From an uncultured delta proteobacterium (GTDB lineage: Bacteria; Desulfobacterota; Binatia; UBA9968), in contig CAWFJP010000003.1 of the NCBI GenBank assembly GCA_963816145.1, positions 160,001 to 224,000 on the forward strand: a stretch of 64,000 nucleotides of DNA, in the 5' to 3' direction. Both the position numbers and the translations under genes were made by a program. Below the pieces are notes generated by a model, which saw only the letters and a list, made by a program, of their open reading frames with translations, did no database searches and was not told the DNA's origin. Shown piece by piece: positions 4,577-53,645 of the stretch (positions are counted from its first letter, which is position 1; every line of letters begins with the position of its first letter).

Positions 4577-4835
4577 TCCTCCGCCGCGACGGGGGAGGAC
4601 AAAGAGCCTGCCCCGGACTGGATCCGGGGTGGGGGTGCCCATCATGTCAATTTTAAGCGTAGCACCCCCATCCTGACCTTCCCCCGTCGGAGGCTGTGTC
4701 GTAATGCGCAAACGCCCCACATCTGTCATCCCGAGCGCAGCGAGGGATCTCGTGTTTTCAGCCACATACGAAGAAGAGATTTCTCGGCTTCACCTCGAAA
4801 TGACAGTTGCGACACAGTCTGTCGAGGGGAAAGGA
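4577..4835. repeat. Composite repeat: family E hairpin pair interrupted by a TIR-MITE that carries a family A REP doublet
   Basis: CCTCCGCC..GGGGGAGG..GGGGTG/CACCCC..CCTTCCCCCGTCG|insert|GTCGAGGGGAAAGG. Confidence 0.7.
4691..4820. mobile_element. 130-bp MITE with terminal inverted repeats
   Basis: AGGCTGTGTCGTAA ... TTGCGACACAGTCT (12/14 IR), flanked by GTCG(G)/GTCG(A); internal REP doublet 4724-4805. Confidence 0.65.
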
Positions 4836-24483: not shown

Positions 24484-24610
24484 ACCACCACAGAGCGCAC
24501 AGAGACCACAGAGGTTTTAGCAAAAAACTTCTCTAATGAACTCTGTGGGCTCTGTGGTGAGTTATCTTTGGTCTCTCAAGATGAGATCTCTCACATTCGT
24601 TGGTATGACA
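24484..24610. repeat. Family C hairpin repeat plus family A half-site
   Basis: ACCACCACAGAGCGCACAGAGACCACAGAGG..CTCTGTGGGCTCTGTGGTG; GAGATCTCTCACATTCGTTGGTATGACA. Confidence 0.7.
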
Positions 24611-24755: not shown

Positions 24756-25769
24756 ATGTCCAGACGAGTTTTTTCGGCGCTGCTGATCTTTTCAATGGCA
24801 TTGTTATTCTCGGTCGAATTGCCGGCGCAAAGCCGCCCTAAGATCGTCATCGGCCATGCTTCCATGAGCTCGGTGGTTCTGACTCTATGGGCGGCGCAGG
24901 ACAAAGGCTTTTTTGCCAAGAACGGTATCGACGCCCAAATGGTTTTCATCCCAGGTTCGCCGACCTTGATCGCCTCGCTCAATACCGGCGATGTTCATTT
25001 TGGTTTCACCGGAGGGACGGCGACCTTGGGCGCGGCGGTGGCTGGACTCGATGTTAGAGTGATCGCCGCCTTCGCCGACCGCGTGCAGAGTGAACTGGTG
25101 ACCCGGCCAGAGATCAAGACCGCCGCCGATCTCAAGGGTAAGCGCATCGGTGTCACCAGCATCGGCGGCACCGGCTGGATGTCGGCGCTCTTGATCCTCG
25201 AACAGATCGGCATCAATGTCGAGCGCGATAAAATGCAGCTCACCGCCTTCGGCGACCAGCGGGTTATCAGCAACGCCCTCGAAAGCGGCACGATCCAAGG
25301 GGCGGCGCTGGCGGGTATTTTTAGTAAAACACTAGCCAGAAAAGGCTACTGGATTCCCGGCGAGCCGGACAAGATTCCACTCACAGGAACGGGATTGGTA
25401 CTCAAGGCCGATTATCTTCAGAATCACGCGGCCATCGCTAGAAATGTCATGCGCAGCTTGGTCGAAGGCCACGCCTACGTATTGAATCCCGCCAATAAGA
25501 GCAGCTCGATGGAGATTCTGTCCAAACGGCTCGGCATAAAAGATCAGAGCGCTGCCGCAGACGGCTATGAAGATTACGTCAACGGTGTCGTGCGCAAGCC
25601 TTACGTCGGCCTCGACGGATTGAAAAACATTCAACGTTTCATGAAGCTGCGCAATCCCAAGATCGCTGAGCTCAATCTCGAAAAATTGATCGACGAGAGT
25701 ATCATGCGCGAGTTTGAGAAAAGCGGTTTCCTCGATCAGCAATTCGGCGTAAAGTCTGGAGTCAAATAA
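24756..25769 (+). CDS. ABC substrate-binding protein, SsuA/NMT1/THI5-like
   Basis: Signal peptide; WAAQDKGFF; DLKGKRIGV; C-terminal EKSGFLD. Confidence 0.88.
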   Translation: MSRRVFSALLIFSMALLFSVELPAQSRPKIVIGHASMSSVVLTLWAAQDKGFFAKNGIDAQMVFIPGSPTLIASLNTGDVHFGFTGGTATLGAAVAGLDVRVIAAFADRVQSELVTRPEIKTAADLKGKRIGVTSIGGTGWMSALLILEQIGINVERDKMQLTAFGDQRVISNALESGTIQGAALAGIFSKTLARKGYWIPGEPDKIPLTGTGLVLKADYLQNHAAIARNVMRSLVEGHAYVLNPANKSSSMEILSKRLGIKDQSAAADGYEDYVNGVVRKPYVGLDGLKNIQRFMKLRNPKIAELNLEKLIDESIMREFEKSGFLDQQFGVKSGVK

Positions 25770-25798
25770 TCAGCGAAAGGTTATACGAGGAGGAATTT

Positions 25799-26890
25799 AT
25801 GGCAATTGACGGCATGAAGGTGATCGATCTCGATAGTCATTTGGTTGGCGATTTGGATAGTTGGGATCAAACCATCGAAGCACAATATAAAGATTTCCTA
25901 CCGCGCAAGCTGCCAACCAAGGACAACGAGCGGCGCAAGACTCTGGTCGGCAATCAAATCATGATCGGCTCCGAGCTGGGCCGGCAGAAGGCGGAAAAGA
26001 AAGAGTGGGTGACTCCCGCCGATCTGACACCGGCGGGGCGCGTGCACAACATGGACCTGGACGGTATCGATGTCGCCGTGCTGTCGCCCAACTCGCCTGC
26101 GCTCGATATCCTTTGGTTCGTCGACGACCCGGAACTCGGCGCCGCCTACGCCCGGGCACAGAATAATTACATGAACTGGTACGCCTCGCAGCAAAAAGGC
26201 CGCCTGATGTGGGCCGGTGTGATACCGCTGCAAGATCCCAAGGAGGCGATCAAGGAACTGCATCGCTCACGCGAGTTGGGCAGCAAAGCGCTCAACGTCA
26301 AAGCGACACCGATTCCTGGTAAAGAATGGTCCGACCCGTACTTCGATCCGATTTTCGACGAACTGGAAAAAACCAAAACACCGATCATCTTTCATGACAC
26401 CAAGACCGGCTCCATGGGCCATGACCGATTTGCCGACAACTTCTTTTTTTCCCACATGGTCGGCCGCACCATCGAAAGCATGGTGTGCTTGATGGTTTAT
26501 CTATGCGGCGGTGTCATGGAAAAGCATCCGGACTTGAAAATCATCTGCCTCGAGACCGGCGCATCGCAGATGCCCTGGTGGTTGTCGCGCATGGACGAAC
26601 ATTTCGAGAAGTTGCCGCATCTCGTGCCCTGGCAGAAGCGCAAACCGACCGACATTTTCAATGAAAGCGTCTTTGTCGGCTGCGAACCTTTCGAAGACGG
26701 ATTGTTCGAGTGGGCGGTGGAATATTTAGGCGGCGACCGCTTGGTTCTCGCCACCGATTCGCCCCACTGGGACTCTTCGGTGCCGGGACAGGTGACGGGA
26801 CCGGTGGCCAAGAGCACGAAGATTTCCCCGGACAACAAGCGCAAAGTCCTGGGCGAGAATGCCATCAATCTGCTGGGGCTGGGGCTCTAA
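25799..26890 (+). CDS. Amidohydrolase family 2 protein (decarboxylase/hydratase/hydrolase)
   Basis: IDLDSH, MDLDGID, IIFH, LETG, ATDSPHWD, LGENA; GAGGAGG RBS. Confidence 0.88.
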   Translation: MAIDGMKVIDLDSHLVGDLDSWDQTIEAQYKDFLPRKLPTKDNERRKTLVGNQIMIGSELGRQKAEKKEWVTPADLTPAGRVHNMDLDGIDVAVLSPNSPALDILWFVDDPELGAAYARAQNNYMNWYASQQKGRLMWAGVIPLQDPKEAIKELHRSRELGSKALNVKATPIPGKEWSDPYFDPIFDELEKTKTPIIFHDTKTGSMGHDRFADNFFFSHMVGRTIESMVCLMVYLCGGVMEKHPDLKIICLETGASQMPWWLSRMDEHFEKLPHLVPWQKRKPTDIFNESVFVGCEPFEDGLFEWAVEYLGGDRLVLATDSPHWDSSVPGQVTGPVAKSTKISPDNKRKVLGENAINLLGLGL

Positions 26891-27042: not shown

Positions 27043-28059
27043 ATGTCGCGACTGCTATGGGTTGTGCTGCTCAACGTTGCATTTCTGGCTGTTCACGGCG
27101 AAACGCCGGCAGCGACTCCAAGCGGTAAGAAATTAGTTATCGCTTACGCCGCCATGAACGCCCGGGTCTGCCCCCTCTGGGCGCCGCGGGAACGAGGCTT
27201 CTTCGCCAAGTACGGGTTTGACGCCGAACCGCTTTTCGTCCGCGGTGCGCCGACGTTGGTTGCCGCCATGTCCTCTAACGAGATCGAAGTTGGCTATACC
27301 GGCGGCACGGCCGTCATCGGAGCGGTCGCGTCGGGCTCCGACCTGAAGGTCTTGTCGGCCCTGACCAATCGGGTGACCTATGAACTGGTGGCCCGTCCCA
27401 ATATCAAAACGCCCGAAGATTTGCGCGGCAAAAAATTTGGCGTGCAGGCTATCGGCGGCACGGTGTGGATGGGCGCGATTCTGGCTCTGGAACACTTGGG
27501 TCTCGATCCCGAGCGCGATAAGATCGCGATCATCGCCGCTGGAGATCAGAGCGTACTCGCGCAAGCGGTCGCCCAGGGCACCATCGACGCGACCGTCCTC
27601 GACGGCGTTCAGGCACGGCCACTCGCGAACAAGGGGCTCAACATTCTCGCCGATCTCGGCAAGACCAATTTGCCGATCCTAAGCTCCTCGATTGTCGCGA
27701 GAGAGCCTTATATTCAGAAAAACCCGCAGCTGGTGGAAAATGTTTTGCGCGCTATCATCGAAGGGGCGGCATTTTGCTTGTCGGCGCGGGAGAAACCCAA
27801 TACGCTGAAGATCTTGCAAAAGTATCTGCGCATATCCGAGAAGGATGCCGAGGAAGGCTATCACGATATGGTCATGGGCCTCGACCGTAAACCGTATGCT
27901 AACCCGGCCGGTGCAACTAACGTTATCCGCCTGATGAAGCGCAGCAATCCCAAAGTCGAGAACGTGAAACCCGAGAACTTGATTGACGACCGAATCATGA
28001 AAAAGCTCGACCAGAGCGGCTTTATCGACGAGATAATGGCGAAGTATGGGGTCAAGTGA
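27043..28059 (+). CDS. ABC substrate-binding protein, SsuA/NMT1/THI5-like
   Basis: Signal peptide; RGFFAKYG; DLRGKKFGV; LDQSGFID; close paralog of 24756. Confidence 0.88.
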   Translation: MSRLLWVVLLNVAFLAVHGETPAATPSGKKLVIAYAAMNARVCPLWAPRERGFFAKYGFDAEPLFVRGAPTLVAAMSSNEIEVGYTGGTAVIGAVASGSDLKVLSALTNRVTYELVARPNIKTPEDLRGKKFGVQAIGGTVWMGAILALEHLGLDPERDKIAIIAAGDQSVLAQAVAQGTIDATVLDGVQARPLANKGLNILADLGKTNLPILSSSIVAREPYIQKNPQLVENVLRAIIEGAAFCLSAREKPNTLKILQKYLRISEKDAEEGYHDMVMGLDRKPYANPAGATNVIRLMKRSNPKVENVKPENLIDDRIMKKLDQSGFIDEIMAKYGVK

Positions 28060-28075
28060 CGGCCGCGCACGCGGC

Positions 28076-28513
28076 CGTCATCCCGAACCAAGAGAGGGAT
28101 CTCGTTGTAGTGGCAGAGAGTTGGACTTGTCATTTCTAGCGCAGCGAGAATTCCATGCCGGCGGAGAATTGCTACTACGTCTATCTGCTGACCAATTGGA
28201 ACAACAAAGTGATGTATGTCGGTGTCACCAACGATCTCAGAAGACGGATATACGAACACCAGAACAAATTGCTGAATGGGTTCACGCAGAAATACAACGT
28301 CAACAAGTTAGTTTATTACGAACAAACGAGTGATGTATTTGGCGCCCTTACCCGAGAAAAAGAAATCAAAGAGTGGCGCAGGGAGAAGAAGAATGCGTTG
28401 GTCGTCCAGGCCAACCCCAAGTGGACTGACTTGAGTAAGGCGTTTTAGATTTCTCCCTTCGGTCGAAATGACAGGCTGAGAGCTTCTGTCATCCCGAACG
28501 AAGAGAGGGATCC
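28076..28513. mobile_element. GIY-YIG gene cassette bracketed by four family A (GTCAT-type) REP palindromes
   Basis: A1 28076-28103; A2 28128-28154 abuts the ATG; inverted A3 28447-28473 overlaps the stop; A4 28487-28513 is nearly identical to A1. Confidence 0.6.
28155..28448 (+). CDS. Small GIY-YIG nuclease family protein
   Basis: YYVYLL...MYVGVTNDLRRRIYEH..GFTQKY..KLVYYE...REKEIK.W.R..K...NP.W.DL; more AT-rich than neighbours. Confidence 0.92.
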   Translation: MPAENCYYVYLLTNWNNKVMYVGVTNDLRRRIYEHQNKLLNGFTQKYNVNKLVYYEQTSDVFGALTREKEIKEWRREKKNALVVQANPKWTDLSKAF

Positions 28514-28565
28514 TTCCAAGTTCAATTCATAGACAATTGCCAAGTTACGCGAAATCGGAGGTTCC

Positions 28566-29675
28566 ATGTACATTGACGGCGATACCCACTATTGGCCGCT
28601 GCGTTTTATCGACAAGGTAAAGCACCCCGGAAAAGGCCACCTCGAAGTGGTCGAGGACAAGGGCGATATGGTGCGCTACGGCGAAGTGGTGCCGGGCAAG
28701 GTGGCGACCTATTACCGCGACGGCAAAAAAGTTCACTCGTTCAAAGAAGGCCGCTGGAGCATCCCGCTGCGCGCCGAGTTCATGAAGAAAGACGGCTTCG
28801 ACAAGCAAGTCTTGATCCCCGACAATCGGCCGCTGATCTACGAGTGCGATGCCGAACTGGGCCGTCAGTTGGCGCGCGCTTATAACGATACGGTCGCCGA
28901 GGACATTCAGGGCGATGATCGTTTCATCGGCTGCGCCTGGATTTATTTGCCGGATATCCAAGAATCCGTGAAGGAGCTGCGCCGCGCGGTCAAAGAGCTT
29001 GGGCTCAAGGCCGTGAAGTTCAACGGCGGTTGGGGCGACGGCGACTTGGACAGCGAAGTCTTGTATCCGCTTTATGAAGCGATCGCCGACTTGGATATTC
29101 CGATCTTACTTCACCCGGCGGCGCGCGTCTATGAGGCGCAGCATAGCCACCCCTGGCTGGTCGGCAGCGAGCGCTTTCAAGGCTACCAGCATTTCCCCAC
29201 CGCTCTGGGCTTTCCACTCACATACATGGTCAGCGCGGCGCGCTTGATCTTCGGCGGCGTGCTCGATCGTTTTCCGACGTTGAAGTTCGGCTTCTTCGAA
29301 GGCGGCATCGGCTGGGTGCCCTGGCTCATGCACACGCTGGACGCGCATATGCCCAACGACGCGACGATTTCCATCTCGGTGCAGCAGTTCTTCGAAGGCA
29401 AGCAGGGCATCAAGAAAAAGCCGAGCCAGTATTTCGATCAGTTCTTCATCGCCTGCGTTTCCTGGGAAACTTACATCGCCGACACCGTCAATGGCTGGCC
29501 CAACCATAACATAATTATTGGCAGCGACTTCGACCACGGCGACGCCGTGGCCACTTGGCCACGCACGGTCGACGTCATCAAGCAGATGAACGCATTGTCG
29601 GCTGCCGACAAGGAAAAAATTCTCGGCGACAACGCCATGAAGATGTTTGGTCTGACTGGCAACGGGGCTCACTAA
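28566..29675 (+). CDS. Amidohydrolase family 2 protein
   Basis: IDGDTH, ARAYND, ILLHP, FFEGG, GSDFDHGD, ILGDNA. Confidence 0.88.
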   Translation: MYIDGDTHYWPLRFIDKVKHPGKGHLEVVEDKGDMVRYGEVVPGKVATYYRDGKKVHSFKEGRWSIPLRAEFMKKDGFDKQVLIPDNRPLIYECDAELGRQLARAYNDTVAEDIQGDDRFIGCAWIYLPDIQESVKELRRAVKELGLKAVKFNGGWGDGDLDSEVLYPLYEAIADLDIPILLHPAARVYEAQHSHPWLVGSERFQGYQHFPTALGFPLTYMVSAARLIFGGVLDRFPTLKFGFFEGGIGWVPWLMHTLDAHMPNDATISISVQQFFEGKQGIKKKPSQYFDQFFIACVSWETYIADTVNGWPNHNIIIGSDFDHGDAVATWPRTVDVIKQMNALSAADKEKILGDNAMKMFGLTGNGAH

Positions 29676-35273: not shown

Positions 35274-35471
35274 AGTGTTCATGAGCTTACGCTCATCTAC
35301 AGATTATGAAATTGCCCGGCATCCCTCCACAGGTACTTTCATTGATCCGTCATGCCGGCGGAGGCCGGCATCCATGGAAGGGAGGGGGATGGATACCGGC
35401 TTTCGCCGGTATGACGAAACCTCCGCGCTGTCGTCTCCCGGTTCATGCCTGCACATGTATTTTCGAAGGAG
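35274..35471 (+). mobile_element. ~195-bp non-autonomous element, copy 1, inserted in family C repeat 35265-35536
   Basis: AG|TGTTCATGAGCTTACGCTCATCTACAGATTATGAAATTGC...family B doublet...TGCACATGTATTTTCGAAGG|AG. Confidence 0.78.
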
Positions 35472-37149: not shown

Positions 37150-37343
37150 CTCCTTAGAAAATACATGCGCAAGCACGATCTGGGCGACGAGTTGCCATAA
37201 GGCTTCCGTCATACCGGCGAAAGCCGGTATCCATCTCCTCCCTCCCCTGGATGCCGGCCTTCGCCGGCATGACGAATCGGGGGGAGGCGTGCAGGGGGGC
37301 TGCAATTTCATACTCTGTGGACGAGCGTAAGCTCATGGACACT
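37150..37343 (-). mobile_element. ~195-bp non-autonomous element, copy 2
   Basis: CT|CCTTAGAAAATACATGCGCA...GCAATTTCATACTCTGTGGACGAGCGTAAGCTCATGGACA|CT; flanks TCCGAACTTCTTGAT / TCGTGGTG. Confidence 0.78.
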
Positions 37344-53446: not shown

Positions 53447-53645
53447 CTCCTAAAATTACATGTGCAAGTATGAGCGGGCGGCGAATTGGCACGAGGTTTC
53501 CGTCATACCGGCGAAAGCCGGTATCCATCCCCTCCCGCCCCTGGATGCCGGCCTTCGCCGGCATGACGAATCAAGGAAAACACCATGGGCTGTTGGGATG
53601 GTTGCAATTTCATACTCTGTAGACGAGCGTAAGCTCATGAACACT
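53447..53645 (-). mobile_element. ~195-bp non-autonomous element, copy 3
   Basis: CT|CCTAAAATTACATGTGCA...GCAATTTCATACTCTGTAGACGAGCGTAAGCTCATGAACA|CT; flanks TTCGAA / TCGTGGCCTTCGA. Confidence 0.78.

Follow-up and report, generated by a model that had tools for sequence, protein, structure and literature searches.

A probable Ssn-family nuclease gene and its flanking hairpin repeats in an operon spacer of an uncultured soil or wetland bacterium

A 97-aa GIY-YIG nuclease gene in the 64,000-nt stretch of bacterial DNA analysed here (the window) very probably belongs to the Ssn family, and sequence comparison suggests that the four hairpin units flanking it are its cognate SRMs and that the cassette as a whole is an insertion in the spacer between a substrate-binding protein (SBP) gene and an amidohydrolase gene. 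Ssn is a family (cd10448) of single-strand DNA nucleases paired with NTS/SRM hairpins (Chenal et al. 2025, Nat Commun 16:2388, PMC11893778), whose members have been shown to cut ssDNA site-specifically beside the hairpin and, in Neisseria, to limit transformation. Since it was published in 2025 as the Ssn/SRM system, the pairing of gene and hairpin is already known and is not a discovery of the present analysis.

Anatomy of the cassette and its nuclease

The open reading frame, which ends in a TAG at 28446-28448, is enclosed by an inverted pair of hairpin units (28128-28153 on the plus strand and 28448-28473 on the minus strand; 26 nt, 81% complementary), such that its ATG starts 2 nt past the upstream unit and the downstream unit begins on the final G of its stop codon. 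Outside this pair lie two direct copies of a second unit, identical at 24 of 25 positions, of which the downstream copy stands head-to-head with the inner downstream unit across a 15-nt spacer (Table 1). The original prediction had described the 97-aa GIY-YIG reading frame, its inverted hairpins, the direct outer copies and the overlap of stop codon and partner repeat, and all of these were recovered, with coordinates shifted by at most one position. The gene is also AT-richer than its surroundings, as had been claimed, with a GC content of 0.459 against 0.575 in each neighbour gene.

Table 1. Coordinates of the hairpin units, genes and repeats discussed in the text (positions of the window).
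Feature	Positions	Strand	Basis or remark
133-nt MITE-like element	4690..4822	+	core 4725-4804 is the gene-free doublet
Decayed hairpin unit	24585..24609	-	visual comparison with CTC-class consensus
Upstream neighbour, periplasmic substrate-binding protein (SBP, NMT1/THI5-like)	27043..28059	+	Pfam PF09084, E 1.9e-19
Perfect 11-nt palindrome TGACGGCCGCG / CGCGGCCGTCA	28057..28080	.	inverted-repeat search, 100% complementary
Outer upstream hairpin unit, CCC stem class (GTC + ATCCC..GGGAT + C)	28077..28101	+	
Inner upstream hairpin unit, TTC stem class, degenerate	28129..28153	+	
Probable ssn-type gene, 97-aa single-domain GIY-YIG nuclease	28155..28448	+	Pfam PF01541
Inner downstream hairpin unit, TTC stem class, minus-strand reading GTCATTTCGACCGAAGGGAGAAATC	28448..28472	-	
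Outer downstream hairpin unit, CCC class	28488..28512	+	
Downstream neighbour, amidohydrolase gene	28566..29675	+	Pfam PF04909, E 7.9e-31

The individual units differ in their state of preservation. The inner upstream unit is degenerate, with two differences from the consensus GTCATTTCGAGCGCAGCGAGAAATC, which is intact at the orthologous loci of three relatives (G002, G003 and G019); metagenome contigs from X1 and X5 carry a G at 28137, which is the consensus base. The outer upstream unit is one of the 15 copies of a subclass whose inner mismatch is A.A, and the outer downstream unit is present in the window's own genome (G000) and in G002 and absent at the orthologous place in G003 and G019. 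The perfect palindrome at the upstream edge runs across the stop codon of the SBP gene and takes in the GTCA head of the outer upstream unit; judged by eye, its arms are complementary and of other sequence at the orthologous spacers of G002, G019 and G042, and its stems look imperfect at those of G003 and G045. A half-site that had been proposed near 24582 proved to be hairpin-derived, and is better described as a decayed minus-strand unit whose 5' stem arm has lost complementarity.

When searched against Pfam, the 97-aa protein matched PF01541 (GIY-YIG; E 4.8e-16, residues 6-79) and no other family. Residues Y10, Y21, R31, H35, E68 and N87 were invariant in an alignment of 15 family members, and the spacing of Y10, Y21 and E68 (11 and 47) is that of Y6, Y17 and E64 in SsnA, a match of spacing rather than an alignment with SsnA; these last three are the residues mutated in N. 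meningitidis SsnA (PMC11893778, Fig. 3 legend). The NCBIfam search returned no family at its cut-off, and a sequence search of the PDB gave weak matches only (1zg2, E 0.047; SLX1, E 0.93). Within its genome, the gene is the sole intact copy of the family.

Three taxa given as ssnA- and cd10448-positive in Supplementary Data 4 of the Ssn paper (PMC11893778), Legionella gresilensis Greoux 11D13, Tardiphaga robiniae and Kordiimonas lipolytica, have genomes that the window protein matches at E 2.1e-23, 7.1e-29 and 1.6e-21, respectively, the first under the same strain name and the other two as the same species only. A scan with the published NTS consensus found 129 stretches, N. lactamica and N. 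mucosa included, and a second scan, run with aligned NTS-flanked members, found 80 loci, none of them from Neisseria. Neither the 97-aa protein nor the family profile gave a match in the genomes of N. lactamica NS19 and N. mucosa. With the NTS-flanked members the window protein shares 40-47% identity, and its clade is sister to theirs.

Hairpin repeats and their association with the nuclease family

Hairpins with a GTCAT head and a 5-bp stem occur 973 times in the genome versus 51 times in a reversed-sequence control, and the pattern of one group of them (family A) has 224 exact matches. In the class that flanks the nuclease gene, GTC is followed by a stem of 5 bp that opens with AT; a tandem G.A mismatch comes next, then a GC clamp of 2 bp carrying a GNA triloop, and a C stands on the 3' side. 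All four local units carry GTC 5' of the palindrome and C 3' of it, the features that govern cutting and binding in the published system (PMC11893778). Both variable outer pairs were Watson-Crick in 227/248 units collected without use of the 3' arm (shuffled mean 91, maximum 110), as were the inner pairs in 190/224 units (shuffled mean 81, maximum 101). Nearest-neighbour DNA folding of six single units gave none that beat its shuffles (z -0.56 to +0.78), and the structural assignment was rested on covariation because the folding energy model is not known to account for sheared G.A pairs or GNA triloops.

The degenerate motif published for SRM searches (PMC11893778, Methods) is an aid to searching that was derived from 29 genomes, rather than a definition of the family. 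It found 320 units in the genome versus 30 in the reversed control, and had no match at 28057-28513, where it found none of the four flanking units, or at 4724-4805. Hairpins neighbouring one another within 150 nt were arranged mostly tail-to-tail (203 (+,-) pairs, versus 47 head-to-head and 15 tandem), with more than 70 (+,-) doublets in family A. A second group, family B, comprises about 306 units and 98 doublets, with one sequence present in 31 identical copies, and the only partner gene found for it is twice frameshifted. Orientation of the hairpins relative to local GC skew showed no bias (family A: 74 and 68 on the plus strand, 72 and 56 on the minus strand). An Rfam scan of 27800-28800 returned only sub-threshold matches to ALIL (18.4 bits, cut-off 50) and Actino-pnp (18.4 bits, cut-off 47.7), both of which were taken as chance.

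The association of gene and hairpin extends across the homologues of the nuclease. A hairpin was present within about 120 nt of the gene at 59/79 homologue loci from many phyla (75%), and hairpins were present on both sides at 33/79 (42%), in line with the 71% and 42% published for ssn homologues (PMC11893778). Random windows drawn from the same 79 loci, by contrast, held a hairpin in 73 of 1580 cases (4.6%). The nearest upstream unit lay on the plus strand at 37/45 loci and the nearest downstream unit on the minus strand at 34/47. Among relatives, 21/24 family loci were flanked, compared with 0/5 loci of other small GIY-YIG genes; these resemble YhbQ / UPF0213 proteins (e.g. BH0048, PDB 1zg2), to which the window protein is similar as a stand-alone GIY-YIG protein of about 100 aa, but only weakly related in sequence, as the 1zg2 match indicates.

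The type of hairpin also tracks the type of nuclease. Mapped on the nuclease tree, hairpin class changed 9 times (mean 25.1 and minimum 18 in 500 shuffles), and in the window's clade of 20 rows, which covers several phyla, all 16 labelled rows had one hairpin class. The 24-mer of the inner downstream unit also adjoins homologues in Gammaproteobacteria, Planctomycetota and Anaerolineales (loci L031-L034), and homologues adjoined by this common 24-mer in different phyla are 66-73% identical. Other family members within the same genus are flanked by exact NTS units (L014, L016, L017 and L019). The gene-hairpin pairing is non-random and clade-specific. The excess over control windows bears out the enrichment around homologues that the original prediction had proposed as a check, and, together with the match of class to clade and a synteny that is not fixed (see below), it upholds the suggestion of a specific partnership between a small GIY-YIG nuclease and GTCAT-headed hairpins.

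The window's gene resembles the published Ssn family in length (about 95 aa), in its single GIY-YIG domain with the same catalytic Tyr/Tyr/Glu spacing, in the oriented hairpins, each headed by GTC and ending in a 3' C, that enclose it, and in the hundreds of repeat copies dispersed across intergenic DNA. It differs from published members in that its flanking hairpins have a shorter stem, the tandem G.A mismatch and the GNA triloop, and in that its host, an uncultured bacterium of soil or wetland, is neither a symbiont nor a pathogen. As binding and cleavage of ssDNA have been shown for the Neisseria and Wolbachia homologues (PMC11893778), we infer ssDNA-specific binding and cleavage for the nuclease of the window. 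The enzyme would bind a specific hairpin into which single-stranded DNA folds and cleave that same strand a few nucleotides to the 5' side of the conserved GTC; in its soil or wetland host it would most likely act on motif-bearing ssDNA, incoming or replicating.

The orthologous site across the genus

In the paralogous SBP-amidohydrolase pair next door (24756-26890) the two genes are separated by a 29-nt spacer, and at 17 orthologous loci in the genus the amidohydrolase gene directly follows the SBP gene across a gene-free spacer of 70-259 nt, in agreement with the earlier claim that the nuclease gene interrupts such a pair. Among the 21 orthologous spacers that were read through, the nuclease gene was intact in G000 and G002, broken in G003 and G019 and missing from the other 17, which shows presence/absence polymorphism of the cassette at an orthologous site. 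The gene is thus not syntenically fixed, being found in 4/21 spacers with two of the four copies broken. The G042 spacer holds a doublet without the gene, the empty arrangement that the original prediction had suggested looking for, and in the spacers of G024 and G016 a short remnant of sequence separates the two arms of the doublet. Boundaries of the insertion were not definable from the gene-free spacers, because these align only to the stop codon and the ribosome-binding site. These observations point to insertion of a hairpin (+) / gene / hairpin (-) unit into the SBP-amidohydrolase operon spacer, probably in a single sub-lineage of the genus, followed by decay that seems to have begun in some of its members.

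Between G000 and G002, DNA identity is 71% in the nuclease gene, 85-88% in the flanking genes and 94% in the downstream hairpin spacer. Relatives carry several family copies, many of which are broken. In public data, at least half of the sampled words of 27600-29000 were present in each of 14 DNA runs from soil or wetland. Contigs from X1, X2 and X5 contained no credible joint skipping the cassette; two such joints, both from X5, had sides of 28 and 30 letters, under the detection bar. A 417-nt contig from X1 spans 28059-28475 with 4 differences and is not independent evidence, since X1 may be the source sample. The RNA run X15 covers only part of the SBP gene.

Possible mobility of the gene and its repeats

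An analogy with RAYT/REP, and with it the idea that the nuclease mobilises the repeats, was already raised in the Discussion of the Ssn paper (PMC11893778). As with RAYT/REPIN, a single-copy gene is flanked by an inverted hairpin repeat that is dispersed mostly as inverted doublets, the repeat type co-varies with the enzyme clade, and the gene has been lost in some lineages. Unlike RAYT, an HUH/Y1 transposase of the IS200/IS605 superfamily, the window protein has GIY-YIG hydrolase as its sole Pfam match; the repeat head is GTCAT rather than GTAG, and one major doublet family has terminal inverted repeats and target duplications of its own.

We regard it as possible, and on balance unlikely, that the nuclease is the mobiliser, with hairpin-gene-hairpin as the autonomous unit and gene-free (+,-) doublets nicked and spread in trans by Ssn, in the manner attributed to RAYTs acting on REPINs. 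In such a scheme Ssn would cut outside each of the two inverted hairpins, on opposite strands, and host replication or repair would then move or copy the segment, the gene-free doublets being its non-autonomous derivatives. The REPIN-like excess of tail-to-tail pairs, the position of the gene exactly where the spacer of a (+,-) pair lies, the single intact gene per genome that has been gained, lost and broken across the genus, and the joint occurrence of gene and 24-mer across phyla would all fit such a scheme. Repeat numbers fit it in part. At 224, the family-A count of G000, where the gene is intact, is the highest among 31 genus genomes, and the 12 of 25 genomes with a close copy (at least 59% identical, intact or broken) hold 21-224 units with a median of 61.5, versus 2-72 with a median of 16 in the 13 without one, a comparison among related, non-independent genomes whose assemblies are uneven in completeness. 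The association between copy number and nuclease presence that had been proposed is therefore seen in the medians, and has exceptions in G004, with 43 units and no homologue at E 1e-3, and G021, with 72 units and no close-type copy.

Two further points count against mobilisation by the nuclease. GIY-YIG enzymes hydrolyse DNA and are not known to form a covalent intermediate, and strand transfer would therefore need other factors. Family B, to which the original prediction had tentatively extended the activity of the nuclease, has for its roughly 306 units only the frameshifted partner gene.

Further counter-evidence came from the gene-free doublet reported at 4724-4805. The doublet is real (4725-4804; a CCC unit on the plus strand, a 30-nt spacer and a TTC-13 unit on the minus strand), but it does not stand alone, being the core of a 133-nt repeat that carries the commonest family-A doublet. 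This repeat has 50 copies in the genome, with an 80-nt core identical to the consensus in 22/49, and its ends, GAGGCTGTGTCG... and ...CGACACAGTCTC, form terminal inverted repeats. A 3-bp target-site duplication was found at 32/50 copies, where about 1 is expected by chance (TCG at 4690-4822), and precise empty sites were found in G002 and G021. It was classed as MITE-like on these grounds: inverted termini, duplicated target sites, a large number of nearly identical copies, and relatives in which the site is empty. A strict-pattern search of the 31 contigs of the draft assembly found no full-length IS with these ends 300-4000 nt apart. Because of the terminal inverted repeats and the 3-bp duplications, the spread of this element points to ordinary transposition rather than to Ssn, contrary to the claim that the nuclease propagates the repeats. 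That the Ssn gene and its hairpins together make up a mobile element with a novel mechanism, the equivalent of RAYT/REPIN built on a GIY-YIG enzyme, strikes us as doubtful.

A homing-type selfish gene seems quite improbable. Here, Ssn would cut hairpins exposed as single strands, and repair from a gene-bearing copy would fill empty (+,-) doublets, such that the repeats would be targets and homology arms, not products. The gene does sit between the arms of a kind of doublet that is common in gene-free form, empty or nearly empty doublets and several, often broken, copies are found in relatives, and allele replacement would give the low identity of the gene between better conserved flanks seen in G000 and G002; relaxed constraint, however, explains its fast divergence equally well. 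With free-standing homing endonucleases of the I-TevI type the window protein shares the GIY-YIG catalytic domain, and its patchy distribution, pseudogenes and GC content below that of the host recall the selfish behaviour of their genes. Unlike them, the protein has no DNA-binding domain or linker, the family as a whole being without the DNA-binding extension of known homing GIY-YIG enzymes, the gene lies in an operon spacer rather than in an intron or phage genome, and Ssn enzymes cut single-stranded, not double-stranded, DNA (PMC11893778). In addition, G000 has one intact copy despite its many family-A (+,-) doublets, and insertion and deletion at the orthologous site can be told apart only with a rooted species tree.

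Finally, that an unrelated small nuclease gene landed by coincidence in a hairpin-rich spacer is hardly credible: although many spacers carry hairpins, because the genome has about 1000 of them, and the predicted stability of single hairpins is unremarkable, this reading is contradicted by the same oriented flanking in 59/79 loci from unrelated phyla versus 4.6% of control windows, by the clustering of hairpin class on the nuclease tree and by published biochemistry on four homologues (PMC11893778).

Taking the cassette as a probable Ssn gene with its SRMs, three things are new with respect to the published system. The first is a hairpin class with a tandem G.A mismatch and a GNA triloop, which lies outside the published search motif and adjoins close relatives of the nuclease in Pseudomonadota, Chloroflexota, Planctomycetota, candidate-phyla bacteria and others; because the motif misses this class, SRM counts made with it are underestimates, and more enzyme-site pairs are on offer for ssDNA tools. 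The second is a natural series at one orthologous site, comprising intact gene, broken gene, gene-free doublet and empty spacer, which can be used for asking whether the cassette moves. The third is that at least one abundant hairpin doublet spreads within a conventional MITE, which calls for caution in attributing repeat expansion to Ssn.

A nuclease gene between hairpin repeats

The 97-amino-acid GIY-YIG ORF (the ssn gene) occupies the spacer between a substrate-binding protein (SBP) gene and an amidohydrolase gene, with two hairpin units on each side (table). The arrangement agrees with the original prediction once its coordinates are shifted by one base, as does the composition of the gene, which is AT-richer than its surroundings (GC 0.459 versus 0.575 in either neighbour) and splits a gene pair whose adjoining paralogous pair has a 29-nt spacer. 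These pairs form tandem paralogous modules (window positions 24756-26890 and 27043-29675), each an NMT1-like SBP gene followed by an Amidohydro_2 gene, and a DNA search with the SBP gene returned many more paralogues across the genus.

Features of the window bearing on the ssn gene and its repeats
Feature	Position	Strand	Remarks
133-nt MITE-like element	4690-4822		50 copies in genome, e.g. C1:93501, C5:154272, C18:233305
Outer upstream hairpin unit	28077-28101	+	CCC stem class
Inner upstream hairpin unit	28129-28153	+	TTC class, degenerate; ends 2 nt 5' of ATG
ssn ORF, 97 aa	28155-28448	+	GIY-YIG domain PF01541, E 4.8e-16
Inner downstream hairpin unit	28448-28472	-	TTC class; first base is final base of ssn stop codon
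Outer downstream hairpin unit	28488-28512	+	CCC class; 24/25 identical to unit 28077-28101

As judged from sequence, the gene and its hairpins fit the Ssn/SRM system, which was published in 2025 (Chenal et al. 2025, PMC11893778). According to that paper, Ssn enzymes (cd10448) are single-domain GIY-YIG proteins of ~94 amino acids that bind a hairpin repeat (NTS, more generally SRM) only in single-stranded DNA and cut a few nucleotides upstream of the hairpin, with cutting governed by the GTC before the palindrome and binding by the C after it. In the same paper, ssn genes are reported as repeat-flanked on at least one side in 71% of cases and on both sides in 42%, and the Ssn enzyme of N. meningitidis lowers transformation by NTS-bearing DNA. 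The window protein resembles this family in size and domain content, and its gene has a matching flanking architecture, with hairpins that carry both the GTC and the C determinant; Y10, Y21 and E68 are spaced as Y6, Y17 and E64 of N. meningitidis SsnA. The protein is also linked indirectly to the family, by matches to the genomes of three taxa (E 2.1e-23, 7.1e-29 and 1.6e-21) marked positive for ssnA and cd10448 in the paper's table, and other family members in the same genus have exact NTS units on their flanks. Two Neisseria genomes (N. lactamica NS19 and N. mucosa) lacked a homologue of the window protein, and a second homologue scan returned no Neisseria locus. The specific nuclease-repeat partnership that had been predicted stands, but was already known.

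Two features of the gene borders were also observed. A palindrome (28057-28080) with the layout TGAC, stem, loop, stem, GTCA links the SBP stop codon TGA to the outer hairpin, whose GTCA head forms its other end. When this site was compared by eye in relatives (L127, L112, L113, L120 and L130), its arms were complementary with differing stem sequences in the source genome (G000), G002, G019 and G042, and its stems appeared imperfect in G003 and G045; the palindrome might hide the GTC head or terminate the SBP transcript. At homologue loci L002, L006, L024 and several others, the reading frame extends into the downstream hairpin and stops at the TGA within ATGAC, so that the hairpin supplies the stop codon and the proteins gain tails such as ...EEGKDFSLRSK.

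Hairpin families of the genome

In the 7.8-Mb draft of the source genome (31 contigs), whose contig C3 carries the window at 160001-224000, a search under strict criteria (GTCAT followed by a stem of 5 bp that closes within 3-20 nt) identified 973 units versus 51 in the reversed sequence, and these group into a few classes. Family A follows the layout GTC, AT-Y-Y-C, GA, two bases, triloop, two bases, GA, G-R-R-AT, C, while the stem of family B (~306 units, including 31 identical copies of one sequence) spans 8 bp around CCGGCG. Single units were not more stable than shuffles under DNA nearest-neighbour folding (z -0.56 to +0.78), which speaks against arguing from thermodynamics alone. The hairpin structure of family A is supported by covariation: in 248 units retrieved with the 3' arm ignored, both variable outer pairs were Watson-Crick in 227 (TT/AA 123, CC/GG 71, CT/AG 31; shuffled-partner mean 91, maximum 110). 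The two inner pairs, assessed in 224 units, were both Watson-Crick in 190, as against 81 on average and at most 101 after shuffling, and the triloop was G-N-A in 184 of these units. Cores of the GCGAAGC type are known to form very stable DNA mini-hairpins. The published degenerate SRM motif detected 320 units in the genome, close to the size of family B, versus 30 in the control, and matched none of the four units beside the ssn gene, which places family A in a class outside that search aid.

Unit pairs at most 150 nt apart were tail-to-tail (+,-) in 203 cases, most often with spacers of 30-40 nt, as against 47 head-to-head and 15 tandem; the gene therefore sits, as predicted, at the spacer position of the commonest doublet type. 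Family-B (+,-) doublets, with spacers of 38 or 20 nt, occur at 35349-35415, 37208-37273 and 53502-53567 of the window and at 95 other places in the genome. They sit within mosaic arrays with other small palindromes, two of which (CGCCTTCAGGCGAAG and GTCGACTTCTAGTCGAC) flank the doublets and make the arrays BIME-like.

Nuclease genes and hairpins across genomes

The source genome has one intact gene of the family. A second ssn-type gene outside the window (C4:568120-568400) carries two frameshifts, belongs to a clade paired with CCGGCG-stem hairpins, and has family-B units and GTCAC-headed variants on both sides. Homologues were present in 30 of 40 relatives, frequently several per genome and frequently broken. 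In the relatives, hairpins lay within 250 nt at 21 of 24 family-member loci versus none of five loci of other small GIY-YIG genes (L028, without a tblastn match, being left out). A wider scan with the family alignment, using one genome per species, confirmed 598 loci, the best 79 of which span Pseudomonadota, Chloroflexota, Planctomycetota, Bacillota, Cyanobacteriota, candidate-phyla bacteria and others. At least one hairpin was found within ~120 nt of the gene ends in 59 of these best 79 (upstream in 45, downstream in 47, on both sides in 33), compared to 73 of 1580 control windows of 310 nt placed at random in those loci, no closer than 400 nt to the gene, so homologues are flanked beyond chance, as anticipated. 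The nearest upstream unit was + in 37 of 45 loci and the nearest downstream unit - in 34 of 47. When 97 proteins, 58 of them labelled by flanking-hairpin class, were placed on a quickly built maximum-likelihood tree, class required 9 changes (shuffled mean 25.1; 0 of 500 shuffles below 18), on few columns with many open forks and with clustering inflated by near-copies. The clade of the window protein (20 rows) shares one class in all 16 labelled rows, across at least seven phyla.

The SBP-amidohydrolase spacer was read in 21 genus genomes. Intact copies of the ssn gene occur in G000 and G002 and broken ones in G003 and G019; a fifth gene-bearing genome, G022 (locus L004), has the same downstream layout, with its gene truncated by a contig end. 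G042 has an empty (+,-) doublet; doublets with short leftover sequence occur in G024 and G016, a single CCC unit in G045, and no hairpin in nine genomes (G006, G007, G008, G011, G014, G017, G021, G043 and G044). The gene is thus not syntenically fixed; telling gain from loss requires a rooted species tree. Four further spacers hold an unrelated conserved element of 176-184 nt whose ends, GGGCTGGTGAAAACG... / ...CGTTTTGACCAGCCCG, are inverted (L121 in G018, L128 in G005, L129 in G012 and L131 in G013), probably another small mobile element occupying the same spacer. G005 is an unpublished genome; it contributes a broken copy (L007), a 179-nt example of this element (L128) and 62 pattern matches, none of which is needed for any conclusion. 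Between G000 (L110) and G002 (L127), DNA identity was 71% in the ssn gene (protein 72%), 85-88% in the flanking genes and 94% in the downstream hairpin-bearing spacer; relaxed constraint, diversifying selection or allele replacement could account for the low value in the gene.

Proposed propagation of the repeats

The original prediction held that the nuclease nicks or propagates the repeats, as RAYT does with REP/REPIN. Family-A pattern matches ranged from 2 to 224 in 31 genus genomes, with 224 in the source genome and 2 in G008, which is without a homologue. In a hand tally of the 25 genomes with both datasets (kin not independent; G012 borderline), the 12 with a close copy, whether intact or broken, of 59% identity or more had 21-224 units (median 61.5), and the 13 without had 2-72 (median 16). 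G004 and G021 are counter-examples, the former having 43 units without any homologue and the latter 72 units without a close copy.

Against propagation by the nuclease, the doublet at 4724-4805, predicted to be a gene-free version, is present but does not stand alone, being part of one of the 50 copies of the 133-nt element. The core of this element combines two hairpin units from different classes, and among the 49 copies whose core is 80 nt long, 22 carry the consensus core exactly. The element bears terminal inverted repeats, a 3-bp target-site duplication surrounds 32 of 50 copies (~1 by chance), and G002 and G021 have an empty site, a small CCTTCC...GGAAGG palindrome whose loop holds the element in the source genome; many copies lie in the loop of a CCTTCCCCC...GGGGGAAGG palindrome. 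Together, the inverted repeats, triplet duplications and empty sites are characteristic of a MITE mobilised by a conventional transposase, and a full-length IS with these ends was not found in the draft genome. In addition, family-B doublets are likewise part of larger structures, the mosaic arrays described above, and this family has a pseudogene as its only partner gene; hairpin orientation across the genome is unbiased relative to GC skew. Repeat propagation by the nuclease is a hypothesis with evidence in both directions, and the Discussion of the Ssn paper likewise likens NTS-ssnA-NTS to insertion sequences and RAYT/REP as a hypothesis (PMC11893778).
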